From IMG/VR virus record IMGVR_UViG_648276643_000011: a stretch of 33,508 nt of DNA; one strand, written 5' to 3'. Origin of the DNA: a virus. Taxonomy: Duplodnaviria > Heunggongvirae > Uroviricota > Caudoviricetes. This document shows, one piece after another, positions 1,003 to 33,508 of the stretch; positions within the stretch are counted from its first letter, which is position 1, and each line of letters begins with the position of its first letter. Under the pieces are notes generated by a model that was not told where the DNA came from, did no database searches, and saw nothing but the letters and a program-made list of their open reading frames with translations. The translations under genes and the position numbers were made by a program.

Positions 1003-1007
1003 TTTAG

Positions 1008-1355: not shown

Positions 1356-1384
1356 ATCATTACCTCAATTTAGCTCAAGTAAGA

Positions 1385-2035: not shown

Positions 2036-2050
2036 GTCACCTCCCTACTA

Positions 2051-2737: not shown

Positions 2738-2753
2738 TCAGGAGGCTAGTGGG

Positions 2754-2957: not shown

Positions 2958-2978
2958 AACAATGAACAGAGCACCATC

Positions 2979-4719: not shown

Positions 4720-4982
4720 CCATTCTGGACTACATCGCTACTCATCCGGGGTGTAGCGGCGGAGAGATCGCCGCAGCACTGAATACCCCAACCACAGCCA
4801 TTAATGCTGAGTTACGCCGACTTTGGCGCGGCGGCTTAGTCATCAGAACAAACCGCAGCACAGGTGGTCGCGCTCGCAAAACAGGAGGCAAGGCTTCTTA
4901 CCACGTAAACCCGATGCCGTTCGGGTGTAGCAATCCACTTACTCACATGTTTAACCAGCTACTGAAGGAAGCCAGAGCATGA
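4716..4982 (+). CDS. Putative winged-helix DNA-binding protein
   Basis: 88 aa; ILDYIATHPGCSGGEIAAALNTPTTAINAELRRLWRGGLVIR resembles MarR/winged-helix recognition module. Confidence 0.45.
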   Translation: MTILDYIATHPGCSGGEIAAALNTPTTAINAELRRLWRGGLVIRTNRSTGGRARKTGGKASYHVNPMPFGCSNPLTHMFNQLLKEARA

Positions 4983-5278
4983 GCACCATCAACCACCAGA
5001 AGCTACGCGAACTGGCATTTGCCCTGCAACGAATGGCAACGCCTCAAAAATTACTGGCATTTCGCGCAATGCTCTCGCCGTCTGCTGTGCTGGCACTGCT
5101 GGATCAGCTGGAGCACGCCAGAACCACGGCTCCAGCCATTCGCCTCACGCTCCATCATGAAATCGCTGATTTCTGCGCAACGCTGGGGGCACCTGGCGAA
5201 CCGGAAACGCCGGAAGCAATGCAGCAAGAGCTGCTGCAACGCATCGATAACGTTTTTGATTTTTTTCTGAACCAGTAA
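4979..5278 (+). CDS. Hypothetical early protein
   Basis: 99 aa ORF translationally coupled to upstream gene. Confidence 0.45.
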   Translation: MSTINHQKLRELAFALQRMATPQKLLAFRAMLSPSAVLALLDQLEHARTTAPAIRLTLHHEIADFCATLGAPGEPETPEAMQQELLQRIDNVFDFFLNQ

Positions 5279-5367
5279 GAAACCAGAACATGCACACACA
5301 AAAAAACCGCTTGCCATGCCGCAATCGGTCAGGTTACATTTCCGCTGCACCTCATAAAACGGGTGCC

Positions 5368-5556
5368 GGGATTCTCAACCCGATACAGAGCAAAGCGCAT
5401 AACCGCGCTAGCGGTTTTTTTGTGCGTACTGTATTGCCACGTCTTTTTCGCGTCAGAATTATGGCGGGGCGTACGGGGCCGACTTCGGTCGGGCCGGATT
5501 CTTTGCTCTCCGGTGTTGAGAACCCTGTACGTCTCGCCACCCCGAGATTCTCAACT
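5368..5556 (+). ncRNA. Candidate structured cis-regulatory RNA / sRNA region in a 320 bp non-coding gap
   Basis: 28 nt arm 5368-5395 is near reverse complement of 5501-5525; embedded intrinsic terminator; UUCG-tetraloop GC hairpin 5475-5496; 11 bp outer stem 5463-5473 with 5528-5538; motif GATTCTCAAC three times (5370, inverted 5515, 5546). Strand assumed from flanking genes. Confidence 0.3.
5401..5423 (+). terminator. Rho-independent terminator
   Basis: AACCGC-GCTA-GCGGTT stem-loop followed by TTTTTTT. Confidence 0.55.
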
Positions 5557-5600
5557 CTGGATGGTGAGTTATTTCTATCACCGAGCAAAGAGGCCACACC

Positions 5601-5831
5601 ATGGCAGACCGCAAACAGCACCGCGCTATCGCGGAGCGTCGTCACATCCAGACTGAAATCAACCGCAGACTTTCCCGCGCATCACGCGTCGCGCAAATCA
5701 TGCACATCAATATGCTGCATGAGCGCAGCCACGCACTATCAAACATTTATTCCGCCTCTGTTTTCAGCTATCTGGCGGATGATCTGCACGAGTTTCAACA
5801 GCTCATCCAGCAGCAAAACAAACTCCATTAA
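5601..5831 (+). CDS. Hypothetical protein, predicted coiled-coil
   Basis: 76 aa, RBS AAGAGG 7 nt upstream. Confidence 0.45.
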   Translation: MADRKQHRAIAERRHIQTEINRRLSRASRVAQIMHINMLHERSHALSNIYSASVFSYLADDLHEFQQLIQQQNKLH

Positions 5832-9174: not shown

Positions 9175-10134
9175 ATGAAAATTTGTATCGACGACGGCTC
9201 CACCAACATCAAGCTGGCATGGACTGAGAACGGCGAACGCCGCAACGCCATCAGCCCGAACAGCTTCAAGTCGGAATGGTCTGCGCCGTTCGGTGGCACG
9301 CAGCCCGCGAACTACATGCTTGATGGCGTGCGCTATGGTTTTGATCCTGTCAGCGATCGCTTTGTCCAGACGACCGACACGCAATACCAATACAGCGATG
9401 TGAATGTCATTGCCATTCATCACGCGCTGGTCAAATCAGGCATCACGCCACAGGAGGTGGATGTGGTTGTCACCCTGCCACTGAGCGAGTATTTCGACAC
9501 AAACGCACAGCCGGACATGGCCAACATCAACCGCAAAAAAGCGAACGTTATGCGCCCGGTGGAGTACCAGAACGGCAAAGCATTCACTATCCGTAACGTA
9601 CGGGTTATGCCTGAATCTATTCCGGCTGGCTTTAAAGCACTGGCTGACATGAGTCCGTTTGAATCCCTGCTGATTGTGGATTTAGGCGGAACCACGCTGG
9701 ATGTGGCAAAGGTTCAGGGACAACTGGCAGGTATCAGCCAGGTGTTTTGCGATCCACACGTAGGCGTTTCCCTGATGGCCGATGCAGTACTGTCGGTGAT
9801 GGCCACTAACGGTATGCGTACCAGTCACCACATCGCCAATACCATTATCGAACATCGCCATGATGAAGCTTGGCTGCGCCAGCACATCCACAATGACGCG
9901 CATTACGCCAGCCTGATGGCGGTTATTCGTGAAAAGGAAGAAACACTGAAACAACGCGTGATCCGCGCGCTGGCGGGTTTTTCGGGTTACGGGCGGGTGA
10001 TGGTTGTCGGTGGCGGAGCGGAGATTGTGGCACCCGCTATCCGCGAAGCCTGCGGGGTTAATGCGACTTTCATCGCGGACGGGGTGCCACAGTTTGCTCT
10101 GGTTAATGGGCTGTACGCAATGGACAAGGAGTAA
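9175..10134 (+). CDS. parM: ParM/StbA-family actin-like ATPase
   Basis: 319 aa; N-terminus MKICIDDGSTNIKLAW matches ParM phosphate-1 motif; further ParM-like blocks (YSDVNV.A.HHAL, MPESIPAG, LI.DLGGTTLD, GGGAE) alignable by eye to plasmid R1 ParM (from memory); RBS AAGGA. Confidence 0.8.
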   Translation: MKICIDDGSTNIKLAWTENGERRNAISPNSFKSEWSAPFGGTQPANYMLDGVRYGFDPVSDRFVQTTDTQYQYSDVNVIAIHHALVKSGITPQEVDVVVTLPLSEYFDTNAQPDMANINRKKANVMRPVEYQNGKAFTIRNVRVMPESIPAGFKALADMSPFESLLIVDLGGTTLDVAKVQGQLAGISQVFCDPHVGVSLMADAVLSVMATNGMRTSHHIANTIIEHRHDEAWLRQHIHNDAHYASLMAVIREKEETLKQRVIRALAGFSGYGRVMVVGGGAEIVAPAIREACGVNATFIADGVPQFALVNGLYAMDKE

Positions 10135-10138
10135 ACCA

Positions 10139-10450
10139 ATGACGACACCAACCAGACGGATAAGTTTCTATCTGAAGCCCGCCGCCGTCAAGAACGAAGG
10201 CGAAGCATGCGCCTGGCTGGACAGCCTTACACCAGAAGCCCGTAAAAACGGCCAACGCGTGGCTTTTCTGGCCGGGCTGGCGCTTCTGAAAATGAATCCG
10301 GCAGAGGCTTACCGACTGGCAGCATGGGCTGACGATGAGGCGTTATCAGTGACACAAACCAGGACAGAACGCCCCCTGTCACAGCCAGTACCAACCGCAC
10401 AGATAACCAGTCAGATGGCCGGAAATATCAGGGCGTTATTTCCTGAATAA
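10139..10450 (+). CDS. parR: ParR-like ribbon-helix-helix adaptor
   Basis: 103 aa starting 5 nt after the parM-like stop with RBS AAGGAG; N-terminal RRISFYLKP ... LDSLTPEARKNGQRVAFLAGLAL and C-terminal NIRALFPE resemble R1 ParR as recalled from memory. Confidence 0.6.
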   Translation: MTTPTRRISFYLKPAAVKNEGEACAWLDSLTPEARKNGQRVAFLAGLALLKMNPAEAYRLAAWADDEALSVTQTRTERPLSQPVPTAQITSQMAGNIRALFPE

Positions 10451-10457
10451 CACAACG

Positions 10458-10477
10458 TCAGGGCGAGTTCGCCCTGA
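10458..10477 (+). other. GC-rich perfect hairpin (TCAGGGCGA-GT-TCGCCCTGA) downstream of the parR-like gene
   Basis: 9 bp perfect inverted repeat 8 nt after the stop codon; no U-tract, so a stability element or protein site rather than a classic intrinsic terminator. Confidence 0.4.
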
Positions 10478-10513
10478 TCTCCATCTCAGAACATAAACAA
10501 GAAGAGCGACTTA

Positions 10514-10762
10514 ATGAGCAAAATCAACTATCAGGCATTACGTGAACGTTATTCACCTGCACCAGTACCAAAATGCCCTATTTGCGGCGAAGAAATGTCA
10601 ATTCAGCGAATATCTGGAGCACAGGTTGTTTATGCCTGCTCCAGTTATGGTGATGATGGAGATTTCAAAGTTGGTCGAACTCTTGTCGACGAACATTATG
10701 AAAAATCACGCGTAACAGTGTTGGATGTCGGGGCCCCTGAAGTATTGGCGCTACTTGATTGA
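10514..10762 (+). CDS. Small putative zinc-binding protein; frame stays open past its TGA stop
   Basis: 82 aa with CPICG ... YAC cysteine pattern; the same frame continues for 45 sense codons after the TGA at 10760-10762, with no conventional start codon in that extension. Confidence 0.45.
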   Translation: MSKINYQALRERYSPAPVPKCPICGEEMSIQRISGAQVVYACSSYGDDGDFKVGRTLVDEHYEKSRVTVLDVGAPEVLALLD

Positions 10763-10987
10763 CTGGAAACCAAAGACAACCGAATCACTGAACTGGAAAA
10801 AATCGCCACTGACTATGCACTTAAATTCCAGAAAGCACAGGACGCATTAAAGTACGCCGCTTTGCTGCATAGCAGGACAGCGCAGCTAAAATACTAACTT
10901 AAAGCGGAAGATTAATACATGGTGAGTCGGGGTAATTTGTTTTTATCCCGACAAATAAACAAAAAAGTGGACTATCTCTGTAGTATC

Positions 10988-11518
10988 TTATTCAGCATCG
11001 TCTCGTGCAGTCTGTGCATACGTCACAACAACGCCCAATGCATTAGTTTTCTTTTCAACATAGATAATATTGTCATATTCATAGTTACCATACGGATAGC
11101 AAATAAGAATATTTTTATGCAGTTCGGGATCATCAACAAACGCTCCGGAACAGCTTCTTGAACTACCAGATGTATACTCATACGGTGCAACATATGATGA
11201 TGTTACTCCTGGTAAAAAATAAGTCACCATCATAAGAGGGATAATCAGGAATATCCCTGTAAGAATGCAAGAGCCAGCATAAACCTTCAGGTATTCCGAC
11301 AGTCCTTTCCAGCCACTTTGCTTCACTACCCCCCTCTTCACCAGAAACAAGGAGAAGAAAAAGGACATACCCATACTACACAAGATGTAATAATTGGATA
11401 TACGCGAATTAAGATATGTAATCCTGTAGATATCTGCCCTCCACCAGTAAAAGAGGAAAATAATCCCTAGCACTGAAACAGTCATGCAAATCAAATAAGG
11501 ATATGAATCTTTCTTCAT
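10988..11518 (-). CDS. AT-rich integral membrane protein (3 predicted TM helices plus soluble C-terminal domain), candidate lysogenic-conversion or exclusion gene
   Basis: 176 aa on the strand opposite the flanking early genes; hydrophobic segments about 10-26, 44-59 and 79-105; lowest-GC segment in the window; at the P2 tin/old position. Confidence 0.55.
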   Translation of the reverse strand: MKKDSYPYLICMTVSVLGIIFLFYWWRADIYRITYLNSRISNYYILCSMGMSFFFSLFLVKRGVVKQSGWKGLSEYLKVYAGSCILTGIFLIIPLMMVTYFLPGVTSSYVAPYEYTSGSSRSCSGAFVDDPELHKNILICYPYGNYEYDNIIYVEKKTNALGVVVTYAQTARDDAE

Positions 11519-11590
11519 GTCTTGCGCTCATTAAAATTTCCCTGCTACGAACAAATTTACCATCCGTTTTTTGCGCAGAAAACAGCACGA

Positions 11591-11623
11591 TGCACACTGC
11601 ACGATAGTGCACAAATTTGCACA
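11591..11623. repeat. Four phased TGCAC(A/G) repeats upstream of the membrane-protein gene
   Basis: TGCACA 11591, TGCACG 11599, TGCACA 11608, TGCACA 11618, spaced 8-10 bp; 70-105 bp upstream of the minus-strand start at 11518. Confidence 0.35.
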
Positions 11624-11998
11624 ATTTTTTTGAACGACTTTTTACCCTTCCGCCCCGCATGGCGGCTGGATCCGTCAAGGATCCGTGCGTGCACAAAAAA
11701 AAGCGTTTTTTCTGCGCGCAGGTGACGGGGGAACAGCCCGCGTTTCAGGGGGTAAATAGCATTCCCTGAGCGATGTCGCAGCGACACAACAGAATGGCTG
11801 TATTTCTCACGCTGAGCGTGAAAAAGACGTGAGGGCTTTTGATTTGATGGGGTAACAGATAAGGCCGCCAAAATCGCACTGAGGCGGCAGGAACATGCAG
11901 TCAACGCGGTGGGATTGCGTAAGAGTCTGACCGTCGATGATGGCAATAAGCTGGAAGGCGTCGTGAAATTATCTGATTGATACAGGAGCTGGAGAGTC

Positions 11999-12021
11999 GG
12001 GGCATAAATTTTTTATGCCCC
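11999..12021. terminator. Perfect 10 bp stem hairpin (GGGGCATAAA-TTT-TTTATGCCCC) just 3' of portal gene Q; possible terminator or part of cos region
   Basis: Perfect palindrome 27 bp downstream of the Q stop codon; a cos-like segment (GAGGCGGCAGGAA) lies at about 11880-11893 but could not be aligned confidently to P2/186 cos from memory. Confidence 0.35.
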
Positions 12022-12048
12022 GGCGAAGCAGCAGACAAGCGAAGCGCG

Positions 12049-13095
12049 TCAGGCTGTGGGCTGAGTGTCTAACAGTGCGTAAGGGTTAAAGCGGATCACC
12101 TCTTCGCCCAGCCAGTCATTGATGTGCTTCATGGCCTCCATGACGGGCATCAGCTCATTAATTGCGTAAACCCGCGCGGCCTTCTCCACATCACCAAACG
12201 CACTTTTTTCGCCCGGCATCGCCCCCATCAGTTGCGGTGGAACGCGGTGCGCAGCCAGCACATCATCACGGGATGCCGCCTTAACATTCATGAACTCATC
12301 CTTTGCGGTGATCTGCTGGAACGGCAAAATTTGCACCCCTTCTTTGCCCCCGTTGGGCGCATGAATGAGCACGTTTTTAAACGCACCACCACCACGTGCC
12401 CCCTGTAGCGTTTCTTTCAGTGAGTCCATGCTTTCGCGGTTTACCTGCGCTGCACCGATGTAGATGATGCACCCGGCGTGGGAGCCGTTGTCGTAGTACA
12501 GTTTTCTGAACATGTCCGCCGAATGAGACAGGCTGGCCGAGAGTAATGCACCAAGATATTCCGGCATGCCGTAGATTTCCTGGTTAATATCCGGATTCAT
12601 CAGGTGGCACACTTTGCCAGGGCGAAACTGAAACGCGTCCTTACCATCCTGCACATACCACCATGATTCAAGATCGCTTCCGCGTCGCATGTATTTCGCC
12701 AGGGCGTGCCGTAATTTAAGCGGTTCGCCGAGCATATTGCTTCGAAGCTCAAGGAATGCGTTACCGAACACAAACCAGTCCAGCGCCAGCGCCGAGAAAT
12801 CCTGCCGGGAAAGCAGCGGGTGCGGGATGTAGCAACCGAGTAATACATTGCGCTTAAAGTAAAGCGCAGATTGATGCCAGGACGTTTGCCGGGCAGCTCT
12901 TGCCAGACCGTACCAGTCCACCGGGGTTTCATACCACCGCCCGTTATCAGCACAGTACATATTGTCCAGCAGGTCATGCCCGGTCAGGCGGTAAGGACCA
13001 TCAAATGTGAATGCACTGAGCGATGATTCTTTCCTGAGCGCATCAGCGAGATCAATGCGTGAACTCATGCGCACTTTTTTATTTTTTCTGCTCAT
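12049..13095 (-). CDS. Q: Portal protein (P2 gpQ)
   Basis: 348 aa; position and orientation (divergent from O, downstream of P) and by-eye similarity to P2 Q. Confidence 0.9.
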   Translation of the reverse strand: MSRKNKKVRMSSRIDLADALRKESSLSAFTFDGPYRLTGHDLLDNMYCADNGRWYETPVDWYGLARAARQTSWHQSALYFKRNVLLGCYIPHPLLSRQDFSALALDWFVFGNAFLELRSNMLGEPLKLRHALAKYMRRGSDLESWWYVQDGKDAFQFRPGKVCHLMNPDINQEIYGMPEYLGALLSASLSHSADMFRKLYYDNGSHAGCIIYIGAAQVNRESMDSLKETLQGARGGGAFKNVLIHAPNGGKEGVQILPFQQITAKDEFMNVKAASRDDVLAAHRVPPQLMGAMPGEKSAFGDVEKAARVYAINELMPVMEAMKHINDWLGEEVIRFNPYALLDTQPTA

Positions 13096-14846: not shown

Positions 14847-15000
14847 TGCTCCCCCTGAGTAATTACAGGAAGATTACCCGCGCGCGAAACCGTTCTCCTT
14901 AACCCCCTGTTCTGGCCGTTTTCTTACAACAAAAGGCCTTTGTATCAGCCTGTTACGCTTTGCCATCATGACTGAAGAACCAGTCAGAGGGGCAAAAACT
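14847..15000. promoter_or_regulatory. Divergent late promoter region between P and O
   Basis: 154 bp gap between divergent terminase and scaffold genes, where P2 carries its Ogr-dependent late promoters; contains TGT/ACA dyad-like elements but no confident match to the consensus. Confidence 0.4.
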
Positions 15001-20278: not shown

Positions 20279-20906
20279 GGCATTCACCCGCGTGGATGAA
20301 ACCTTTGAGGCCATCCGCGACAGCCTGAATCAGCAGGCCATCAATAACATCGCCAGAAAGCTGGCACAGGATTTACGTCGCGCCCAGCAGGCACGTATCC
20401 GGTCACAGAAAGCGCCGGACGGGACCGCATGGACACCACGCAAACGCCGTGTAACCCGGATACAGGAACGCATTCGCTTTATCTGGAATAACGAAGCACG
20501 CACGCTGAAAAACTGGCATCACGACACGGGGAAATACGGGCGAACCATCACCGGGTGGGATGAGGATAAAAACAACATCCGCACGTTTTACCGGGATGAC
20601 ATCGACCGCTTTCTGGAAATACGCACCCGGCGCATCAACCAGGACAGCACAAAGCGCGTCCCCATGTTCGTAAAACTGCGCACCGCCCGCTACCTGAAAG
20701 CCCGTGCAGATGCTTCCGGTGTGACGGTGGGTTACAGCGGCGTGGCCGCACGTATTGCCCGCGTTCATCAGTTCGGTGAGCGCGATCAGGTTGCGCCGGG
20801 CATTTTCACCGATTACCCGGTACGTGAGTTGCTGGGTATCAGCCAGGCAGATGAGCGCCTGATTTATAACACGGTGCTGGGCCGGATTGCGGAGGCTGTA
20901 CGGTGA
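20271..20906 (+). CDS. S: Tail completion / virion morphogenesis protein S
   Basis: ATG 20271 overlaps R stop (ATGGATAA); position between R and V. Confidence 0.7.
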   Translation: MDKAFTRVDETFEAIRDSLNQQAINNIARKLAQDLRRAQQARIRSQKAPDGTAWTPRKRRVTRIQERIRFIWNNEARTLKNWHHDTGKYGRTITGWDEDKNNIRTFYRDDIDRFLEIRTRRINQDSTKRVPMFVKLRTARYLKARADASGVTVGYSGVAARIARVHQFGERDQVAPGIFTDYPVRELLGISQADERLIYNTVLGRIAEAVR

Positions 20907-23261: not shown

Positions 23262-25919
23262 ATGAGCACGAAATTTAAAACCGTTATCACTACTGCCGGA
23301 GCCGCGAAGCTGGCAGCCGCCACTGTCCCCGGCGGGAAAAAAGTAACTCTGTCTGCAATGGCCGTGGGTGACGGTAATGGCAAATTGCCGGTGCCGGATG
23401 CCGGTCAGACGAAACTGGTGCATGAGGTCTGGCGTCACGCTCTGAATAAAGTCAGCGTGGATAACAAGAATAAAAACTATATCGTGGCTGAACTGGTTGT
23501 ACCGCCAGAAGTGGGCGGCTTCTGGATGCGTGAGCTGGGTCTGTATGACGATGCCGGAACACTGATTGCGGTCGCTAACATGGCGGAAAGCTATAAACCT
23601 GAACTCGCTGAAGGCTCCGGGCGCGCGCAGACCTGCCGCATGGTTATTATTGTCAGCAACGTGGCGTCCGTTGAGCTGAGTATTGATGCCAGCACAGTGA
23701 TGGCGACGCAGGATTACGTCGATGACAAAATCGCAGAGCATGAGCAATCCCGCCGCCATCCTGACGCCACGCTGACAGAAAAAGGTTTTACTCAGTTAAG
23801 TAGCGCAACAAACAGCACCAGTGAAGAGCTGGCGGCAACGCCAAAGGCAGTAAAAGCAGCCTATGACAATGCTGAAAAACGTATGCAGAAAGACCAGAAC
23901 GGTGACGATATTCCAGATAAGGGCGCTTTTCTGGACAATGTTGGCGTTACCAGCCTGACGTTTATGAAAAACAATGGCGAAATGCCGCTTGATGCTGACT
24001 TGAATACATTTGGTCCCGTTAAGGCTTATCTTGGCATCTGGTCTAAAGCAACATCCACCAACGCAACACTGGAGAAAAATTTCCCGGAAGATAATGCTGT
24101 CGGTGTGCTTGAGGTTTTTGCAGCTGGCAATTTTGCAGGCACGCAACGTTTTATCACGAGAGACGGCAATGTATACATGCGTAAACTCGCCAATAAGTGG
24201 AATGGCACTGATGGTCCGTGGGGCGTATGGCGTCACACTCAATCAGCTACCCGCCCTTTGAGTACGACTATAGACCTGAATACGCTTGGAGCCGCTGAGC
24301 ATCTTGGTTTATGGCGTAACAGTAGCTCGGCTATAGCTTCATATGAACGCAATTATCCAGAGGAAGGCGGCTTTGCTCAGGGGACGCTTGAGATCCTCGA
24401 AGGCGGGAATTATGGAAGAACGCAACGTTATACCACTCGTCGTGGGAATATGTACGTTCGCTGCCTTGCGGCAAGCTGGGATGCATCAAATCCGCAGTGG
24501 GAACCGTGGTTAAGAGTCGGTCATCAGTCAGAGAGCCGTTATTACGAAGGTGATTTGAATGTTCTAACCGACCCCGGTATTTACAGTGTTACAGGAAAGG
24601 CGACAAACGGTCCGATGCTGGACGCTGCTGGGGCGACATTGCTTGGGATACTGGAAGTAATCAGGCGTTTTGATGGTGTATCTGTCTGGCAGCGTTACAC
24701 AACCACAGGAAAATCAGAAACCACACAGGGGCGCACTTTTGAGCGCGTCTACGCCGGGAGCACATGGACCGAATGGCGAGAAGTGTATAACTCCTTTTCG
24801 TTGCCCCTGAATATGGGGATCGGTGGCGCAGTGGCAAAACTCACCAGCCTGGACTGGCAGACCTACGATTTTGTGCCGGGCAGTCTGATAACCGTTCGGC
24901 TTGATAACATGACCAATATTCCCGACGGTATGGACTGGGGCGTCATTGATGGCAACCTGATAAACATCGCTGTTGGTCCGAGTGATGATTCCGGTACGGG
25001 GCGCTCAATGCATGTATGGCGCAGCACTGTAAGTAAAGCGAATTACCGCTTTTTTATGGTTCGCATTTCAGGAAATCCGGGAAGCCGCACGATTACGACA
25101 AGACGTGTGCCAATTATCGACGAAGCTCAGACATGGGCGGCGAAACAGACATTCAGCGGTGGTCTTTCTGGCGAACTATCCGGCAATGCTGCTACAGCAA
25201 CAAAGCTGAAAACGGCAAGGACAATTAACGGCGTAAAATTTGACGGCTCGGCAAATATTGAAGCGTTTCCGCCAGGTGTTCCGCTGCCGTGGCCATCAGA
25301 TACTGTGCCGTCTGGTTACGCCCTGATGCAGGGACAGACTTTTGATAAATCTGCATACCCGAAACTTGCAGTCGCTTATCCGTCAGGCGTGATCCCGGAT
25401 ATGCGTGGCTGGACAATCAAGGGCAAACCCGCCAGTGGTCGGGCCGTATTGTCTCTGGAACAGGACGGCATTAAATCGCACACCCACAGTGCCAGCGCAT
25501 CCAGTACGGATTTGGGTACGAAAACCACATCGTCGTTTGATTACGGTACTAAATCAACGAATAACACAGGTGCACATACCCACAATGTATCTGGTACTGC
25601 AAATAGTGCTGGCGCACATACTCATACCGTTCCATTAAGGAGACCAAACAGTGGCGGTATGAATTTCGACTGGCTGGATGGTGCATCAAGTGGCACGGTG
25701 GTGGGGAATGGAACTGTGCCTTCTTCTGGCGCACATACCCACTCAGTATCAGGTACCGCTACAAGTGCTGGGGCACATGCACACACTGTTGGTATTGGCG
25801 CTCATACGCACTCTGTTGCGATTGGTTCACATGGACACACCATCACCGTTAACGCTGCTGGTAACGCGGAAAACACCGTTAAAAACATCGCATTTAATTA
25901 TATTGTGAGGCTTGCATAA
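23262..25919 (+). CDS. H: Tail fibre protein H with internal tandem domain triplication and His-rich GAH(T)H repeats near the C-terminus
   Basis: 885 aa; conserved P2 gpH-like N-terminus; three about 85 aa tandem repeats (residues about 235-500); six GAHTH/GAHAH/GSHGH motifs in the last 130 aa. Confidence 0.9.
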
Positions 25920-26536
25920 TGGCATTCAGAATGAGTGAACAATCACGTACTGTAAAAATTTATAACCTGCTGGCCGGAACTAATGAGTTTATTGGTGAAG
26001 GTGACGCATATATTCCACCTCATACAGGGCTGCCAGCCAATTCTACAGATATCGCCCCACCGGAAATTCCTGCTGGCTTTGTGGCAGTTTTTAACAGTGA
26101 AAATGAATCGTGGAATATTGTTGAAGACCATCGTGGTAAAACGGTCTATGACGTGGCATCGGGGGACGCGTTGTTTATTTCTGAACCCGGACCGCTACCA
26201 GAGAATGTCACCTGGTTGTCGCCAGCAGGGGAGTATCAGAAGTGGGACGGCGTATCCTGGGTGAAGGATGAGGAAGCAGAAAAACTGTTTCGGATACGGG
26301 AAGCGGAAGAGAAAAAGGCAAGGTTGATCCAGGAAGCAACAGATAACATCGCAATTCTGCAGGATGCAGTTAATCTTGAAATAGCAACAAACGAGGAAAA
26401 TTCACAACTGGATTCCTGGAGAAAATACAGAGTATTAGTGAGTAGAATTGACACCAGTACAGCTCCGGATATCGTATGGCCAGAGCTGATGAATCAGGGT
26501 TATGTGCGGGAGGACGAGCAGATAACTTCAGACTGA
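25919..26536 (+). CDS. G: Tail fibre assembly chaperone (gpG-like)
   Basis: 205 aa; ATG overlaps H stop (TAATG); position after H. Confidence 0.8.
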
Positions 26537-27063
26537 AATTTAGTGATGAATGTTGAATCATCTGGAATATCATGCAATACCAATGCATGAGCACCTATTG
26601 TGACATTGTTTCCTATACGCACTTTGCCACCAAGAATGGTGGCATTACAACCAATGGTCACATTATGTCCTATAACAATATCCATATCATTAAAATCACC
26701 ACGCAGCCCAATAGTTACCCCTGGTTTTATTGAACAATTTTCACCGATTGTTACTTTGTGACCGATAACAACACTGTTGAGATAAGAAATATCAAAGCCT
26801 TTCCCTATATTTACAGTTAAAGGGACTGTTACATTATATTTATCAAGAATGAAACGTTCTATTTTCCCCGCAATCTTCCGACAGTATCCGCCTTTATCAA
26901 AAAGGTATTTGGCTATGCGCCACCAAAATAAATAACGAACTCTTCTATGTTTTATTGCGCGAACAATTGCCTTTCGCCAGGAGAAAGGACGCTCGCTACC
27001 GATTACTTCATAGTGAATACAATCTTTAAGTTCATTAATATTCATATCTCTATTATTCAGCAT
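26500..27063 (-). CDS. Hexapeptide-repeat (left-handed beta-helix) acyl/acetyltransferase at the Z/fun variable locus
   Basis: 187 aa; consecutive hexapeptide repeats [21 protein letters not shown] ... [34 protein letters not shown]; about 35 percent GC; convergently overlaps the 3' end of G by 37 bp. Confidence 0.75.
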
Positions 27064-27185
27064 AAGATAATCATGTGACCAATTATTGTAATAATTTTAA
27101 TGGTATGTTTCTACTGGCTATCCAGCGTGTCTGATGTCCAGTAACAAATCGTTAACACTGGTGCAATCAAATGGTGAGTGTTAAG

Positions 27186-27225
27186 ACTGGCCACTTATTA
27201 CCAGGTATGAGGGTATGAGTGGCCA
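27186..27225. other. 9 bp inverted repeat (CTGGCCACT ... AGTGGCCAG) with 22 nt spacer, immediately 3' of gene U
   Basis: Perfect 9 bp arms at 27186-27194 and 27217-27225, between U stop and the acetyltransferase start; weak terminator or protein site; lies at one boundary of the inverted tail block. Confidence 0.35.
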
Positions 27226-27233
27226 GCATTAAA

Positions 27234-27728
27234 TCAGAACAGCCCTTTAACTGAACTGGCCGCGCTGTTAAGGGATGATGTCACTTTATCTTTGAAGCCG
27301 GACAGCATATCGCTGAACGATGAGGATTGCAGGCGCTCCCGCAAATCCTCATCACAGCGTTCAAGGGTCAGTGAAAATTCTATCTTTTTCGCCTTACCGT
27401 AGCGATCAAACTCGGAACGGGTCGTATTCGTTTCGGTCAGGACATACATGCCGTAAATCTGCCCGACGCCATCAATAAGAGGCCAGGGGCGTCCTGTATA
27501 CGCCTGCGTGGTCAGCAGCGACAGCGACACTTCGCCACCTGTAATTTCAGGATAAAGCACACCAGAAAGAACGATGCGATCATCACCTGCACCGATATAC
27601 TGCCAGCTTGCTGAACGGTTAACGCGTTCATTTTTCACATGCCGCCAGCTTTTGTTTTGCTGTAACTGCTGATGCGGCAGCGTGCGCAGCTCAAAAACAA
27701 ACATGCCGTAGATCATCATCATGGCCAT
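27234..27728 (-). CDS. U: Tail protein U
   Basis: 164 aa; follows tape measure as in P2; similarity to P2 gpU. Confidence 0.85.
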   Translation of the reverse strand: MAMMMIYGMFVFELRTLPHQQLQQNKSWRHVKNERVNRSASWQYIGAGDDRIVLSGVLYPEITGGEVSLSLLTTQAYTGRPWPLIDGVGQIYGMYVLTETNTTRSEFDRYGKAKKIEFSLTLERCDEDLRERLQSSSFSDMLSGFKDKVTSSLNSAASSVKGLF

Positions 27729-27734
27729 GACTCC

Positions 27735-30578
27735 TCAATCTTTATCGTAAAAACTGCCACGCCCGGCACGGGCGCGCCGTTCCATTTCTGCCCTGACCAT
27801 TTCACCGACCAGTTTCGCCAGTTCGCGGGGATTCTGCGTAACAACGTTATGCAGATGAACATGAATTTCACCACCAAATCCGGAGGCAACAGGCTCCCGG
27901 TTACGGGAAGTTACAGGAACTGATGCCACTGGAGATCGTATGGCCTCCGCCACCGGGCGGGAGCTGGCCGCAACAACAGGGACCAGCGCCGGAGGCAGCG
28001 GAGCCGGGACCACGGGTGTGATATTAATTGCGGGGGCAGGCTTACTGACCTGCGCAATCTTCCGCTCCTGCCACTCTCCACGAACAGCAAGTGCGCGGGG
28101 CAGGTTCTTAAAGACAATATCGCCGGGGCCAATGCGTTTTTTCGTCTCATCAACCAGCTTACCTGTGTTATCAGCAATTTTGCTGAGTCTGCGTAGCGTC
28201 CCGGTATTGCTGTCTGTGAGCGGTTTGTTGTCTTTGGGTTTATTACCTCCGGTGCCATTGCCATTTTCCACAGGCTTCGGCGGATTGATTTTCGCCAGGT
28301 CACCCTGAAGCAAGGCAACCTTGTCCTGAAGAATGGCCGCACGCTGTGCGTCTTCGATTTTCTTGCGCGCTCTTTCCGCTTCATCCGGAAGGACGCCAAG
28401 TTTTTCAAGTATCCACGCCAGCGTATCCAGTAGCATTTTTGCAGGTGTCAGAACAAGCTGTAACGCACCGCCAAGAACGTTACCGAATATCTCGCCAGCA
28501 CTGGTACATTTATCCAGCGTTTCCTTGCTGGACTCCATCGGTGACAGCAGCGATTTAAACCAGTTAAACACCTGGCTGATCCCGCTTCCGATTGTGTCAA
28601 AAACAGGACCAAACCGTTCAAAGGTTTCGCGCAACGGGGTCAGCCTTTCCATAATCCCGCTGAACACCCCGGCAAAAAATGCCCTGATGGGATCCCAGTA
28701 TTTCCAGATAAGAACGGCAGCTCCGGCAAGCGCAGCCACGATAAGACCAACCGGACTGAACAGCGCCCCGATAGCGCCTCCCAGTAAAGAAACGGAACCC
28801 GTCACCATTCCCCACAGCGCAGGCAACACCCTGACGACATTCATTGACCGGGTAAGAATGTCAAAACCAAGACGCAGGGTGGCCAGCTTCCCGTAAAGCA
28901 CCCCAATAACCAGCGACAACGAGCCAATCGTTGCAGTCATTGCCAGCAACGCACCGCCTGCTATCAGTAGCTGGCGCGTCAGTACCGGATGGGCCTGCGC
29001 CAGCGAGGTGATTTTTTCAAGCACCCGCGTGAGCCACTGCGTGACAGAACGCAGCGGACCGTCAACCAGATCACTGATGCGAATACGAAGACCTTCCCAT
29101 GCGCTGTCGAGATTTTTCAGGTCCCCATCAAGATTATCGGCCATTACTTTTGCGACGCGATCGGCCTCTCCCCTTGCCCCCTGCAATTCTCTGGTCAGTT
29201 TTTGCAGCTCTCCTGAACCAGCCGCCGCAACAAGCGTCTGCAAACCAACGAACGCCTCTTCTCCGGCGATGTCCTTGAAGAAGGAAACCTGGTCCACCTG
29301 TCCGTATTTTTGTGTCGCCTTATAGAGATCAAGCAGCACATCCTCCATCGGGCGCATTTTGCCTCTGGCGTCAGCAACTGACACCCCCAGCTCTTTCAGT
29401 GCATCAGCCGCAGCTTTTGGCGGTGATGCAAGGCGGGACAGACTTGCGCGCATGGCCGTACCAGCATCGCTTCCGCGAAGACCATTATTGGCAAGCATCC
29501 CGGCCATGGCTGCCGCTTCTTCAAGACTGATACCAAGTTTTGCGGCAACCGGACCGGTATACTTCATGGTTTCGCCCAGCGCGCGTAAATCAGTATTGGT
29601 CCGGGTGAATGCTGCTGTCAGCGTATCGCCAACACGGTCCATTTGATCGGCTGTCAGGTTGAACTGTGTGAGGATATTGGAGCCTATATCAGCCGTCTCG
29701 CCGAGTTCGACGCCACCTGCCAGCGCCATATTAAGAACACCGGGCAATGCGGCCTGAATGGCCTGCGGAGTAAAACCAGCCATTGCCAGAAAGCTCTGCC
29801 CACTGGCGGCATCACTCGCAGTAAACTGTGTTTCAGAGCCAAGTTTTAACGCCTGCTCACGCAGCGCCTTAAACTGCGGGCTGTTTTTGTCGATTCGCGT
29901 CAGTGCCTGAACACGGGACATCTCTTTGCCGAACCCGATCGCAGGCTGCAAAAAACGCCCGGCAGCATAGCCGCCCGCCGTTGCCGCACCAATTGCCAGC
30001 GCACCACCTGTTTTCAGTTTTCCCGCTGTTTCCTGCGCGCGCGAATACCGCTCACGCGCCCGTGTTACACGCGCAAGCGCCTGCCGTTCGCGTTCAAGCT
30101 GGTTGTTGTACTGTTCGGTGCGTCTGATGGCCTGCTGGATGGTGTTATCGCTGCCTGTCAGGGAAATGCCGTGGCGTTTCAGCTCTCCGCCAAGCTCCCG
30201 CATTTTCTGAATTTCCCGTGTGCGCGATTCATTCAGGCGTTCAAGCCGGGTGCTTAACTGCTGCATCAGCTTTTGTTGTTTTTCGCTGAGCACTGTACCC
30301 GTGCGTTGTAACTGATTAAGGGCGTTAAGCTGGCGTCGTGCTTTCAATATGCCAGCATCCGCTTTACTGACAGCGTCACGGGCGCGCTCAAATGAACGCG
30401 CCTGACGCTCGAGATTTTTGATCGCCCCCTGCGTTCGCTGGATGGAGTCACCAAACTGCCCCATCAGGCGGCGGGCGTTTTCGGCAGGCCGGGTCAGCCT
30501 GTCAACGGCGCTGAAAGCGACCCGGATGTCAAGAGTCTTCATTGTCTGCATTCCCGCTGCGAAGTGCCGCCCGCTCAC
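27735..30578 (-). CDS. T: Tail tape measure protein T
   Basis: 947 aa, alpha-helical N-terminal half with coiled-coil character, central hydrophobic/glycine-rich segments. Confidence 0.9.
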   Translation of the reverse strand: MSGRHFAAGMQTMKTLDIRVAFSAVDRLTRPAENARRLMGQFGDSIQRTQGAIKNLERQARSFERARDAVSKADAGILKARRQLNALNQLQRTGTVLSEKQQKLMQQLSTRLERLNESRTREIQKMRELGGELKRHGISLTGSDNTIQQAIRRTEQYNNQLERERQALARVTRARERYSRAQETAGKLKTGGALAIGAATAGGYAAGRFLQPAIGFGKEMSRVQALTRIDKNSPQFKALREQALKLGSETQFTASDAASGQSFLAMAGFTPQAIQAALPGVLNMALAGGVELGETADIGSNILTQFNLTADQMDRVGDTLTAAFTRTNTDLRALGETMKYTGPVAAKLGISLEEAAAMAGMLANNGLRGSDAGTAMRASLSRLASPPKAAADALKELGVSVADARGKMRPMEDVLLDLYKATQKYGQVDQVSFFKDIAGEEAFVGLQTLVAAAGSGELQKLTRELQGARGEADRVAKVMADNLDGDLKNLDSAWEGLRIRISDLVDGPLRSVTQWLTRVLEKITSLAQAHPVLTRQLLIAGGALLAMTATIGSLSLVIGVLYGKLATLRLGFDILTRSMNVVRVLPALWGMVTGSVSLLGGAIGALFSPVGLIVAALAGAAVLIWKYWDPIRAFFAGVFSGIMERLTPLRETFERFGPVFDTIGSGISQVFNWFKSLLSPMESSKETLDKCTSAGEIFGNVLGGALQLVLTPAKMLLDTLAWILEKLGVLPDEAERARKKIEDAQRAAILQDKVALLQGDLAKINPPKPVENGNGTGGNKPKDNKPLTDSNTGTLRRLSKIADNTGKLVDETKKRIGPGDIVFKNLPRALAVRGEWQERKIAQVSKPAPAINITPVVPAPLPPALVPVVAASSRPVAEAIRSPVASVPVTSRNREPVASGFGGEIHVHLHNVVTQNPRELAKLVGEMVRAEMERRARAGRGSFYDKD

Positions 30579-30797
30579 GCCAGCTAACCACTTCGCCGGG
30601 CGTCATCATGAAGATTTCGGCGGGCGACCAGTTAAAAATGGCGGCAATATCCGCCACCAGATCTTCGATGTGCTCAAAGCACACCAGGGTGATTACGCTG
30701 CCGTCTCCTGCACGCTCTTCGCGCCAGAGTCTGGCTCGCTCATAAAATTTACAGCCACAGCGCACAACTGAATAAAATCGCGTGACGACATTTTTTT
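30529..30797 (-). other. E' extension reached by programmed -1 frameshift from E (tail assembly chaperone E+E')
   Basis: The -1 frame opens directly after a TAA at 30796-30798 and runs to 30529, overlapping the start of T; slippery A7 tract (plus-strand T7 at 30791-30797) inside E. Confidence 0.6.
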
Positions 30798-31058
30798 AAT
30801 CATCACTTCATCCAGTCGTGGCGAGGTCACGCGAGGCAACAGCGTGAACATGGTATCCGCTTTCAGATTCAGCACATCAGACAGCGACAGACCACGCAGG
30901 GATCCAGCCTGCTCAATAGCCCCGGTGATCTCCACATACGTGATTTTTTCGCCACCACGCTCAATTGGTCGGGTCAGTTTTACGCCACGCTCGCTGGTTT
31001 CTTTCACAGTGTCAGCAACGACCGTATTTTCGGTATCGATGTTTTTCGTCACTTTCAT
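30693..31058 (-). CDS. E: Tail assembly chaperone E
   Basis: Blocks GSLRGLSL and LLPRVTSPRL parallel P2 gpE; the true start may be an internal codon because the 121 aa ORF is longer than P2 E. Confidence 0.75.
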   Translation of the reverse strand: MKVTKNIDTENTVVADTVKETSERGVKLTRPIERGGEKITYVEITGAIEQAGSLRGLSLSDVLNLKADTMFTLLPRVTSPRLDEVMIKKMSSRDFIQLCAVAVNFMSEPDSGAKSVQETAA

Positions 31059-31112
31059 CAGGAAACTCCTTTCAGTCAGAGGCGACGCACTGCGCCGCCT
31101 GCATATTACTTA

Positions 31113-31625
31113 TCAGCCAAGCCCGAGCGCGGAACGGATGCGATCGGGCACAATGTCCTTGCCGTCCTTCCGGTAAATGAAGTTCAGCAGGTCAATCTCC
31201 CACAACGGGCGATCGTTAACACTCAGCTTGTAGTAGGTGTTTTTAATGGCGTAAGTGTGTGATGTGGCTTCGCCCTGTTTGGCTTCCCCCATATCAATTT
31301 CCGTCACACGTCCGCGCATTTCGACTTCATACAGGTCGCTTTCATCATCGGTGTAGTATTCACCCGCAAAACGCAGTAGCGTGCCGTCAATCGTGCCGCC
31401 ATACTTCAGGAACAGCTCACGAACTGCGCCCCCCATGACAAAGCTCGCATCAAGCGCGGAGTCGTCCAGACCGAGATCAATACTTACCGCCCCCATCATG
31501 CCACCACCCCGGTAGCTGTCGGTTTTGCGCGTCAGTTTAGGCAGGGTGACGGACGTCACCTTACCCACTTCGTTTTCACCATCCACAAACAGCGTAAAAA
31601 AGCGAAGATGTTTTGGTACAGCCAT
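31113..31625 (-). CDS. FII: Tail tube protein FII
   Basis: 170 aa; size and position after sheath; by-eye match to P2 FII. Confidence 0.9.
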   Translation of the reverse strand: MAVPKHLRFFTLFVDGENEVGKVTSVTLPKLTRKTDSYRGGGMMGAVSIDLGLDDSALDASFVMGGAVRELFLKYGGTIDGTLLRFAGEYYTDDESDLYEVEMRGRVTEIDMGEAKQGEATSHTYAIKNTYYKLSVNDRPLWEIDLLNFIYRKDGKDIVPDRIRSALGLG

Positions 31626-32809
31626 CAGGCACCTCCCAGCACCGCAAATGCGGGACCAAAGAATTCATCAGTAAACGACTGGTAAAGCTCCATGTCTTCC
31701 AGCGGAGGAACGGGCGTATATTTGTAGCGAATACGCACACGCCCCTGACGTAAATTCGTGGTGCTGTTATCCACGATGTCATACCAGCACTCCGCGCCAA
31801 TCAGTTTCCCGGCAGTAACCAGTGAATCCAGTTTTGCCCTGATGGCACTGATAACATCCTTCACGTTCGCAGGCGTCAGTGGACTGTCGATGGTTTCAAA
31901 CTGCGCTTCCGCAATTGAATCAGCCAGCACCTGTGCAGTTCGGGTATACACCTCAAAGATGTAGGCGTTCGTTTCCGGTGTGCGGTTGCCCCAGAAGCGG
32001 AACCCGTTGCGACGAATAATGGTCGTGATTTCTTTGTTGTTGAGGCTGTTGGCATCGCTGTCTTCGGCCTGCAACGACCAGAACACATGCCTGGACATCC
32101 CCAGCACATTTTTAACCGGAACATTGGACAGTGATTTGTGCCATCCCTGCTCATGGTCAATGTACGCACGAAGGCCGCACGCATAGGCAGGCGCGGGGAA
32201 CGTTTCGTTTTTGCCACTTTTCGGGTTGTAGGCGATGAAGTCCGGCCATAAGAGCATCACCTCACGTTCATTGAATTTCTGGCGGTAGGTAATCGCCTCA
32301 GCCATCGTGTTACAGCCGTGACATGAGGCATACACAAACGCGCGCAGTTTACCCGCAATCACGCACAGGGATTTTGTTACCGCCTCCGTATCCAGCTCCG
32401 GCGCGGCCAGAATACGCGGACGGTATCCGATGCTTTCATCCTGCTCTGCAACAAGCAGCGCATACATCCCCGTATAGCTGCCGTCAGATTCAGAACCACC
32501 GATAACCAGTTGATCCTGCGTTTTTCCGTCTTCTTCTTTGTGTTCAGCCACGCGAACGACGATCACCTTTGTGCTCACCTGGTCTGCGATGGCCTTAAGC
32601 GCACGATAAAGCGTCCCCGTTGTTCCGCATTTTCCCAGCACGTCATTGACGCGGGTCAGCAGTGTGGGCTTGTTCAGCGGGAACAGCTCCGCGTCCGCAT
32701 CATCCGCCATTGCCACGATACCGATAACACTGGAATCAACATCATTAATCGCTGTTACCAGGTCGGTACTTTCCGTAACACGGGCACCATGAAAACGAGT
32801 TTCACTCAT
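31625..32809 (-). CDS. FI: Tail sheath protein FI
   Basis: 394 aa; strong by-eye identity to P2 FI (DADAE.FPLNKP, KLRAF.Y, YRQ.F, WPDF, EQGWHK.LSNV, IRR.GFRFWGNRT, NYTRTAQV, YTPVPPLE). Confidence 0.9.
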   Translation of the reverse strand: MSETRFHGARVTESTDLVTAINDVDSSVIGIVAMADDADAELFPLNKPTLLTRVNDVLGKCGTTGTLYRALKAIADQVSTKVIVVRVAEHKEEDGKTQDQLVIGGSESDGSYTGMYALLVAEQDESIGYRPRILAAPELDTEAVTKSLCVIAGKLRAFVYASCHGCNTMAEAITYRQKFNEREVMLLWPDFIAYNPKSGKNETFPAPAYACGLRAYIDHEQGWHKSLSNVPVKNVLGMSRHVFWSLQAEDSDANSLNNKEITTIIRRNGFRFWGNRTPETNAYIFEVYTRTAQVLADSIAEAQFETIDSPLTPANVKDVISAIRAKLDSLVTAGKLIGAECWYDIVDNSTTNLRQGRVRIRYKYTPVPPLEDMELYQSFTDEFFGPAFAVLGGA

Positions 32810-32966
32810 AGCTTCAGCCCCTTGTATCCGTTAAATGATTCGGCAACAATCATCACCCACCACGCGCGTAATCTCACCCCTGCGCCGTTCTCCCGACCCG
32901 GCGACAACAAAAAGCAGTAACCCCCTCCGCACGCACATGCGACCATGCCGCACAGGGAGGGAACAG

Positions 32967-33234
32967 ATGACCGATACCACCATGCAATTGCTCAGTCAGG
33001 GCACAGACCCCGTGAAAATGCCGGATTTTGATATTCTCGCGGAGGGTAAAACGCTGTCAGGCGTGGCAGAGCGCCTGATGAGCCTGTCACTGACCGACAA
33101 CCGGGGATTTGAGGCGGACCAGCTCACCATCACGCTGGATGATGCGGATGGTCAGTTGCAGCTACCGCCACGGGGCGCGCGCCTGACGGTTCTCATTGGC
33201 TGGAAAGGAGAACCGCTGACAGAAAAAGGCACTT
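32967..33234 (+). pseudogene. D: Tail protein D, 5' fragment only (about 88 codons), interrupted by IS30
   Basis: MTDTTMQLLSQGTDPV ... LTDNRGFEADQL ... LDDADGQ ... GWKGEPLTEKG matches the P2 gpD N-terminus; RBS GGGAGGG upstream; homology ends where the IS30 terminal repeat begins. Coordinates plus or minus 1 nt. Confidence 0.8.
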
Positions 33235-33508
33235 GTAGATTCAATTGGTCAACGCAACAGTTATGTGAAAACATGGGGTTGCGGAGGTTTTTTGAATGAG
33301 ACGAACATTTACAGCAGAGGAAAAAGCCTCTGTTTTTGAACTATGGAAGAACGGAACAGGCTTCAGTGAAATAGCGAATATCCTGGGTTCAAAACCCGGA
33401 ACGATCTTCACTATGTTAAGGGATACTGGCGGCATAAAACCCCATGAGCGTAAGCGGGCTGTAGCTCACCTGACACTGTCTGAGCGCGAGGAGATACGAG
33501 CTGGTTTG
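33234..33508 (+). mobile_element. IS30 insertion sequence, left end (continues beyond window)
   Basis: Terminal inverted repeat TGTAGATTCAATTGGTCAACGCAACAG followed by the IS30 transposase start. Coordinates plus or minus 1 nt. Confidence 0.85.
33296..33508 (+). CDS. insI: IS30 transposase, N-terminal portion (partial at window end)
   Basis: MRRTFTAEEKASVFELWKNGTGFSEIANILGSKPGTIFTMLRDTGGIKPHERKRAVAHLTLSEREEIRAGL is the IS30 transposase N-terminus as recalled from memory. Start plus or minus 1 nt. Confidence 0.85.
   Translation, partial: MRRTFTAEEKASVFELWKNGTGFSEIANILGSKPGTIFTMLRDTGGIKPHERKRAVAHLTLSEREEIRAGL

Follow-up and report, generated by a model that had tools for sequence, protein, structure and literature searches.

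Does the strand split in this P2-like tail module mark a damaged prophage, or is it the normal gene order of a lineage? The window, by which we mean the whole 33,508-nucleotide stretch of DNA that was analysed, carries its sheath-to-U genes in the direction opposite to their neighbours. An earlier note, made from the sequence, took this to suggest a rearranged, probably defective prophage or else an unrecognised lineage-specific architecture. We find that the inverted order is ordinary and not the sign of a scrambled prophage, because it is the normal order of a whole P2-like branch that includes phage P88 and plaque-forming relatives.

Layout of the tail module

The window holds a P2-like tail module (FI, FII, E, E+E' with a -1 frameshift, T, U and D), and each tail-gene identity is backed by Pfam and PHROG profile scans. 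The minus strand carries FI, FII, E/E', T and U (27234-32809) and the plus strand V-W-J-I-H-G and D, so the canonical one-strand order H-G-FI-FII-E-T-U-D is absent. The inverted operon begins with the tail sheath gene FI (31625-32809; Pfam Phage_sheath_1, Gp18_domIII_N and Phage_sheath_1C), followed by the tail tube gene FII (31113-31625; Phage_tube, 1.3e-47), the tail chaperone gene E (30693-31058) and the E' frame (30529-30765), with Phage_TAC_7 and Phage_P2_GpE matches for the E/E' region. The tape measure gene T (27735-30578; PhageMin_Tail) comes next and the gpU tail protein gene (27234-27728; Phage_P2_GpU, 5.5e-39) is last. The T interval is that of the longest open reading frame, versus a gpT start near 30542 implied by the P88 and PGAP annotations. 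The sequence reads as an X_XXY_YYZ slippery heptamer, AAATTTT, at 30750 to 30744, where the -1 frameshift for E+E' would occur. D (late control D or tail hub; PHROG 52 and 4456, the tail protein D family) is represented on the plus strand by its N-terminal 89 codons (32967-33233), and a divergent 157-bp spacer (32810-32966), conserved in an alignment of relatives, lies between FI and D.

On the other side of the block, the long plus-strand late operon ends in the tail fibre gene H (23262-25919) and the fibre assembly gene G (25919-26536), with Phage_tail_fib, Collar and Caudo_TAP matches for the pair, converging on the inverted genes. The slot between G and U is variable and is held here by a minus-strand cargo gene, or moron, for a hexapeptide-repeat acetyltransferase (26500-27063; Hexapep), which is AT-rich (GC 0.41-0.43 versus about 0.55 for the backbone) and has predicted sigma-70-like promoter sites of its own at 27113-27052.

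P2 and the window share the same gene set and the same internal order from FI to U, and P2 too is annotated with an E/E+E' frameshift. In the P2 record, however, H, G, fun(Z), FI, FII, E, E', T, U, D and ogr all lie on one strand, with an F operon that reads pF-FI-FII-E-E'-T-U-D-ogr. When window proteins were compared with P2 by tblastn (26-68% amino acid identity; 33-59% for tail-module genes, 45% for FI), only FI to U fell on the strand opposite to their P2 counterparts and the other genes agreed. Gene calls and tblastn thus bear out the earlier description, in which FI through U are flipped relative to H-G and D, D and V-W-J-I-H-G stay on the plus strand, and D is parted from U with an upstream region of its own. 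The pV spacer of P2 is also missing from the window, because S and V overlap.

The inverted order in P88 and its relatives

The window is collinear with Escherichia phage P88 (Xuanwuvirus) at 91-97% nucleotide identity over 3027-23866 and 27229-33234, and blastn blocks of 84.8-96.5% identity span about 25 kb of its 33.5 kb; the right end of the prophage lies outside the window. Homology resumes at 27229, 5 nt beyond the U stop codon. The FI to U proteins match those of P88 over their full length at 83-99% identity (U 99%, T 94.6%, FII 99%, FI 97%), and the D N-terminus is 100% identical. The integrase/immunity region (1-3000; integrase 39% identical), two moron regions and the fibre tip are unmatched by P88; the tail fibre tip is mosaic, with collinearity stopping at 23866. 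The strand pattern Q P / O N M L ... V W J I H G / U T E' E FII FI / D is identical in the window, P88 and Ec503458.

The Xuanwuvirus members P88, PhiR44_2, 500465-2 and Citrobacter phage PhiSM have the same order and strands as the window. ParM-type partition genes are common to P88, Xuanwuvirus and the window, and the FI/D spacers are the same except for 2 nt. The G-U slot differs, being occupied in P88 by an invertible fibre cassette with a DNA invertase and empty in PhiR44_2, and D is interrupted by IS30 in the window, unlike in P88. Several carriers of the order are infectious: P88 is a mitomycin-inducible, plaque-forming phage of myovirus shape with a burst size of about 65 (PMC5285337), PhiSM forms plaques and has lysogenised K-12 (PMC6456863), SEN4 and SEN5 are released myoviruses (PMC5261728), and PhiR44_2, propagated on E. 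coli C, carries the same inverted order.

Besides Xuanwuvirus, the order occurs in Reipivirus, Reginaelenavirus and Senquatrovirus (Salmonella and Klebsiella phages, including SEN4/SEN5), four ICTV genera in total. In these three genera FI-U is inverted and D divergent as in the window, FI is 55-70% identical to that of the window, and the spacers hold a T[G/C]T-N12-ACA box. These phages differ from the window in host and in cargo genes. The order can be read from the annotated records of P88, PhiR44_2 and SEN5, and was found in Kp4847-1 and Kp4876-2 by tblastn. Orientation was uniform across every P88-clade genome examined, and the FI/D junction was found in 1358 of 5426 complete E. coli genomes, about a quarter.

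A census of species-representative loci, restricted to the best 80 of 195 and biased by search patterns derived from the inverted clade, split cleanly by FI identity. D was divergent upstream of FI in every one of the 54 loci with 55% or more FI identity to the window, and all 26 loci at or below 51% were canonical; among these best 80 of 195, the 54 inverted loci span more than 20 genera of Enterobacterales. In a simple neighbour-joining tree of nine concatenated structural proteins, two of them encoded inside the block, the inverted genomes formed one clade with 100% bootstrap and the outgroups were canonical. Fels-2 and P2-like phages of Burkholderia and Ralstonia, considered as further carriers, proved wrong candidates: Fels-2, KL3, KS14, phiCTX and Ralstonia YO037_1 all have the canonical order.

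We therefore hold with high confidence that the window is a P88-like (Xuanwuvirus-type) prophage of the P2 family, in which minus-strand FI-U is the native, fixed order of the lineage. As four ICTV genera share the inverted order, the P2 order marks P2 and its nearer relatives, not the whole family. Of the alternative that the earlier note called an unrecognised lineage-specific architecture, the lineage-specific part stands, as the order is fixed in one well-supported Peduoviridae clade. It is not hidden, being already visible in annotated reference genomes of the four genera. Searches of the literature on P88, Xuanwuvirus, SEN4/5 and P2-like orientation, which covered a 2026 survey of P2-like defence hotspots, turned up no explicit description of the inversion.

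The IS30 insertion and rival origins

The junction sequence confirms that an IS30 sits in D, as had been noted. Its left end cuts the gene at 33234 (TGTAGATTCAATTGG...), 268 nt past the D start, within the target GAAAAAGGCACT/TACATTGTTGATG; the element occupies 33234-33508 on the plus strand and continues beyond the window, with the left inverted repeat TGTAGATTCAATTGGTCAACG and a transposase ATG at 33296. A near-identical prophage, MEI003, carries an IS30 of 1221 bp, with CT duplicated at the target, and then the remaining D. Roughly 260 E. coli copies are interrupted by IS30. Another near-identical prophage, in E. coli strain 631, has a 100% identical junction, an intact D without IS30, and the same order. 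A defect, if there is one, stems from IS30 in the essential tail gene D and not from the inversion, and in this form the earlier suspicion of a defective prophage keeps some force. As a consequence of the inversion it does not hold, since the same order is found in plaque-forming P88 and PhiSM, in PhiR44_2 propagated on E. coli C, in SEN4/5 and in a quarter of complete E. coli genomes. Comparison with intact related phages, proposed beforehand in the earlier note as a check on its rearranged reading, found the same orientation and refutes that reading.

IS30 was also considered as the agent of the inversion and rejected: it is present as a single copy inside D, none lies at 27064-27233, and relatives without it share the order. 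Our search agreed with the earlier note that no inverted repeats pair the two block boundaries; the best pairs were short and fell within genes, as chance matches.

The order most likely arose by one ancient inversion, because its carriers form one clade with 100% bootstrap. In favour of several independent inversions, tail-module shuffling recurs in the family, with T translocated in Mannheimia Baylorvirus and V/W moved in Smp131 (PMC3931495), but the one fully supported clade, the clean FI-identity split among the best 80 of 195 loci (at least 55% versus at most 51%), and the homologous FI/D spacers with the same box and footprints make such convergence improbable. We consider it very improbable that the block was rearranged recently in one strain of a decaying prophage. 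IS30 does interrupt D 425 bp from the block boundary, and decay is plain in related prophages of O157:H7, which have a frameshifted T, carry both IS30 and an IS3-family element, and have lost ogr. Yet plaque-forming phages and 1358 complete E. coli genomes have the same junctions, other genera keep the order at 55-70% protein identity, the five block genes are full length with an intact E/E' frameshift site, and strain 631 combines the same order with an intact D.

A programmed, reversible switch run by a Din-family invertase, like those of the Mu G, P1 C or Fels-2 fibre type, might be suspected from the DNA invertase that P88 and other members carry directly beside U and from the Fels-2 invertase beside FI. 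We give this reading hardly any weight: the block has no flanking inverted repeats, the window shows the same order without any invertase, a single orientation was seen across 1358 E. coli genomes and the 54 species loci from the best 80 of 195, and flipping would part D from any promoter or break a conserved spacer. The chance that a misjoined or flipped contig produced the order is practically negligible. Nothing specific speaks for such an artefact, beyond the general point that IS30 copies can confuse short-read assemblies, whereas the G/cargo/U and FI/D junctions recur in independently sequenced phages and in over 1300 complete genomes, the boundaries are without repeats, and the sole repeat element, IS30, lies outside the block.

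These findings bear mainly on annotation. With P2 as the template for all 'P2-like' prophages, readers and pipelines can take the normal order of the very common P88-type prophages for damage. Knowing that the order is clade-wide should reduce false 'defective' or 'misassembled' calls on these prophages, which roughly one complete E. coli genome in four carries, and directs attention to the real lesion, IS30 in D.

The FI/D spacer and its candidate promoters

Ogr/Delta-dependent late promoters carry a TGT-N12-ACA dyad whose centre lies near position -55 relative to the transcription start. The FI/D spacer contains an Ogr-box-like dyad, TCT-N12-ACAACAAAA, on the plus strand at 32889-32912, with its TCT-N12-ACA part at 32889-32906; measured from its centre at 32897.5, the FI ATG is 88.5 nt away and the D ATG 69.5 nt. 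The box is imperfect relative to TGT-N12-ACA, Xuanwuvirus members having the half-site TCT instead of TGT, and is perfect in other relatives. The short pattern is unspecific by itself, with about seven loose matches in the window, and only the extended motif and position-anchored conservation are informative. The extended motif occurs in the window only here and at 14911-14934 (plus strand), versus 0.2 occurrences expected; the second site lies in the divergent P/O spacer and is the counterpart of the shared pP/pO activator site of P2.

Among the 54 inverted loci in the best 80 of 195, 47 have a TGT-N12-A[GC]A box centred 78.5-88.5 nt upstream of FI. The corresponding distance is 77.5-85.5 nt in canonical loci, and the centre of the P2 pF activator site lies 83 nt from FI. 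As the box still stands nearly as far from FI as in P2 (about 88 nt versus 83 nt), the pF promoter would therefore have moved with the block.

Conservation in the anchored alignment points to a -10 hexamer on each side of the box, 46 nt from its centre. The predicted pF hexamer is GATGAT (32849-32854, minus strand), in columns with the consensus GAnnAT (GATTAT or GAATAT in most relatives), and the predicted pD hexamer is GACCAT (32941-32946, plus strand), preceded by a conserved GC-rich block; on the pD side the columns nAnnAT and CAnGnGCGCGnG exceed 1 bit across 49 unique spacers. This would leave D a short leader of about 14 nt. A generic sigma-70 scan of the spacer gave nothing convincing, as expected for promoters that depend on an activator. 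In MEI003, strain 631 and PhiR44_2, a candidate activator gene, for an 86-aa PF04606 protein (E = 5e-14) of the Ogr/Delta zinc-finger type, is found downstream of D; D followed by ogr is an arrangement that these close relatives share with P2. In the window's prophage the ogr position falls outside the window, beyond IS30.

Most likely, one Ogr box drives back-to-back promoters, pF leftward and pD rightward. For pD and the shared use of the box, this reading is based on spacing and conservation, the -55 position being derived from the -10-like hexamers. The history we propose is a single inversion in the ancestor shared by Xuanwuvirus, Reipivirus, Reginaelenavirus and Senquatrovirus. The segment flipped would have been the whole pF transcription unit minus D, comprising Ogr box, promoter and FI through U, with breakpoints probably upstream of the pF activator site and at the tight U/D junction. 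FI-U would since have been read leftwards from its own late promoter, converging on the H-G operon, and D would be read rightwards, followed by the cargo genes and ogr.

We see an even chance that the inversion, by bringing D up to the pF Ogr box from the opposite side, created a second bidirectional pair, pF/pD. As there is no pV spacer, just two shared activator sites (P/O and FI/D) would then drive the late regulon of the clade, and D, no longer coupled to U, would be transcribed together with the cargo slot downstream of it. No description of this pF/pD design was found in the searchable literature. It has some bearing on how phage late regulons tolerate rearrangement, in that one Ogr box may feed two divergent promoters.

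A close parallel is P2 itself, where pP and pO share one annotated activator site, flanked by starts some 55 nt away in either direction. In Smp131, one dyad likewise serves the divergent promoters PP' and PO' (PMC3931495). The FI/D spacer has the pP/pO geometry, with a single TGT-N12-ACA-type dyad midway between divergent late genes, and the same extended motif as the P/O spacer of the window. Thus the site in the middle of the 157-bp spacer may serve pF and pD as the P2 site serves pP and pO, its two-way use being deduced here, unlike that of P2 pP/pO.

Orientation of the tail block

The ORF map places V-W-J-I-H-G on the plus strand, with the fibre gene H at 23262-25919 and the fibre assembly gene G at 25919-26536. 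On the minus strand come a hexapeptide acetyltransferase gene (26500-27063), U (27234-27728), the tape measure gene T (27735-30578), the chaperone frames E' (to 30529) and E (30693-31058), the tube gene FII (31113-31625) and the sheath gene FI (31625-32809), and D starts on the plus strand at 32967. Pfam and PHROG scans bore out all gene identities, and AAATTTT at 30750..30744 gives the E/E+E' chaperone pair a canonical slippery heptamer. In contrast, all of H, G, fun(Z), FI, FII, E, E', T, U, D and ogr share one strand in the P2 record, and by tblastn the strand mismatch between the window and P2 is limited to FI through U. No inverted repeats pairing the two block boundaries were found in the window. 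Thus, the gene map, the strand comparison with P2 and the lack of boundary repeats agree in every detail with the flipped FI-to-U block described in the earlier note.

The suggestion that this order marks a rearranged prophage does not hold, as intact, working relatives (P88 and PhiSM) have the same orientation. Megablast of 25000-33508 against deposited phages gave 90-97% identity across U to FI and into D for Escherichia phages 500465-2, PhiR44_2, P88, 520873 and 503458, Citrobacter phage PhiSM and Xuanwuvirus P884B11. The annotated PhiR44_2 and P88 records are laid out exactly as the window: H and G share a strand, the opposite strand carries U, T, E', E, FII and FI, and D is divergent from FI. 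Collinearity with P88, at 91-97% nucleotide identity, extends over 3027-23866 and 27229-33234, and the five block proteins are all complete, with 83-99% identity to those of P88. The region belongs to the P88-like (Xuanwuvirus-type) branch of the P2-like phages. P88 is mitomycin-inducible and plaque-forming, with a burst size of ~65 and a contractile-tailed virion (PMC5285337), and PhiSM forms plaques and has lysogenised E. coli K-12 (PMC6456863). The PhiSM tail was described as long and non-contractile, that of a siphovirus (PMC6456863), and the PhiSM genome (OR565851.1) encodes sheath and tube genes with 93.6% nucleotide identity to those of the window; the morphologies of the two Citrobacter phages may have been swapped.

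An invertible switch was rejected given the absence of flanking repeats, the absence of an invertase in the window and the single orientation seen everywhere examined. Inversion mediated by an insertion sequence and an assembly artefact were also rejected.

Distribution and origin of the inverted order

By tblastn, FI identity falls in steps, from 83-99% in P88-like phages through 67-70% in Klebsiella Reipivirus and Reginaelenavirus phages to 55% in Salmonella SEN5 (Senquatrovirus), with all others below 50%. The inverted block and divergent D are annotated in SEN5 and located by tblastn in the unannotated Klebsiella phage records; SEN4/5 are released myoviruses (PMC5261728). P2, Fels-2, Gegevirus, KL3, KS14, phiCTX, a Ralstonia phage and Kp4846-2 have the canonical order. 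In a neighbour-joining tree of nine structural proteins (1916 columns, 200 bootstraps), the inverted genomes all fall in one clade with 100% bootstrap support, and the outgroups are canonical.

When one genome per bacterial species was scanned and the best 80 of 195 loci assessed, D lay divergent just upstream of FI wherever FI was at least 55% identical (54/54 loci), and the order was canonical wherever FI was at most 51% identical (26/26). Hosts of the inverted type include Salmonella, Citrobacter, Edwardsiella, Enterobacter, Kosakonia, Symbiopectobacterium, Pantoea, Erwinia, Klebsiella, Raoultella, Brenneria, Serratia, Pectobacterium, Providencia, Xenorhabdus, Hafnia and others, and 1358 of 5426 complete E. 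coli genomes contain the FI-D junction. A 97%-identical P88-type prophage also occurs on a contig of 226 kb that carries the label Vagococcus sp. (a Firmicute; NZ_JBQPOM010000071.1), which is most likely a contaminant or a mislabelled enterobacterial contig.

The most economical reading is one old inversion, since fixed in the inverted clade. This order can be read directly from reference genomes in four genera; the literature searched on P88-like and P2-like phages yielded no remarks on it. Mannheimia phage 1152AP (Baylorvirus) has a lineage-specific tail-module rearrangement of its own, in which T (9927-12839 of that locus) has moved to a position between S and V and lies apart from E and U. 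V/W are relocated in Smp131 (PMC3931495).

IS30 insertion in D

D is interrupted after codon 89, where the left end of IS30 begins at 33234. A near-identical prophage in E. coli MEI003, between btuC and ihfA, has the identical left junction and reads D N-terminus, 1221-bp IS30 with a CT duplication, D C-terminus, GmrSD gene, ogr and hok. One and the same CT dinucleotide of D is occupied in the window (33234-33508), in MEI003 (35144-36366 of its locus) and in E. coli O157:H7 TR01 (4842-5816 of its locus). The transposase is on the plus strand in the first two, and the TR01 element is in the opposite orientation, so this site has been struck at least twice. An IS3-family element follows the TR01 copy, which is also truncated, and T has a frameshift there. 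The fibre, acetyltransferase and inverted block of the window recur in E. coli strain 631, where D is uninterrupted. Among 1371 E. coli genomes carrying this D, ~1111 read through the insertion point without a break and roughly 260 are interrupted at precisely that position, pointing to a target hot spot for IS30.

As gpD is annotated in P2 as contributing to tail formation, the prophage is probably unable to make infectious particles. The earlier note's expectation of a defect thus probably stands, but the cause would be IS30 in D and not gene order. RefSeq annotation (PGAP) calls gpD from an internal start only, as a 267-aa 'contractile injection system protein, VgrG/Pvc8 family' (L012, the MEI003 locus, 36409-37209; L098, another prophage locus, 7336-8577), also in copies whose reading frame is open over all 369 codons; the annotation therefore does not distinguish intact from IS30-split copies.

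Predicted late promoters and accessory modules compared with P2 and P88

P2 late genes have four Ogr-dependent promoters, each with a TGT-N12-ACA dyad (PMC3931495). In the P2 record, the divergent promoters pP and pO share a single activator site, with their starts 55-56 nt away on either side, and the pF site precedes FI by 83 nt. The window has exactly two copies of the extended motif TCT-N12-ACAACAAAA, where 0.2 would be expected, one at 14911-14934 in the P-O spacer and one at 32889-32912 in the FI-D spacer, and relatives carry T[G/C]T-N12-ACA at both equivalent places. In 47 of the 54 inverted loci, the centre of a TGT-N12-A[GC]A dyad lies 78.5-88.5 nt before the FI start codon; in canonical loci matching the strict pattern, it lies 77.5-85.5 nt before FI. 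These distances are alike, so pF and its activator site would have travelled with FI in the inversion, and the inverted unit appears to be the pF operon without D.

Among 49 distinct, anchored FI-D spacers, the FI side has a conserved -35-like GCGTG and -10-like GA(T/A)(T/A)AT (in the window GATGAT, 32854..32849), and the D side a conserved GC-rich block and then nAnnAT (GACCAT, 32941-32946); both hexamers lie 46 nt from the box centre. Downstream of D, near-identical prophages and PhiR44_2 have a gene for an Ogr/Delta zinc-finger protein (PF04606, E = 5e-14). From the box position, the mirrored hexamers and this gene, we infer that one Ogr box would drive both pF and a predicted rightward pD, with a predicted D leader of only ~14 nt. 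Because S and V overlap at 20903-20906, the window has no pV spacer; together with the restriction of the extended motif to two spacers, this suggests that late genes of the inverted lineage would depend on two bidirectional sites. The proposed shared-box pF/pD pair is the sole part of this analysis that goes beyond deposited annotation.

The cargo in the slot between G and U (26500-27233) is the AT-rich acetyltransferase gene, which has sigma-70-like sites of its own; a hairpin lies at 27181-27232. The same slot holds an invertible alternative fibre cassette and a DNA invertase in P88 and is empty in PhiR44_2; its counterpart in P2 is the Z/fun slot. The replication gene A is followed at 9175-10134, as it is in P88, by a gene for ParM-like plasmid segregation and a partition gene that partners it, and such genes are unusual in an integrating P2-like phage. 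Neither 1-3000 (integrase and immunity region, the integrase just 39% identical) nor the AT-rich 10500-11600 after the partition genes matches P88, and both are mosaic replacement modules. The window differs from P88 only in such mosaic parts and in IS30.
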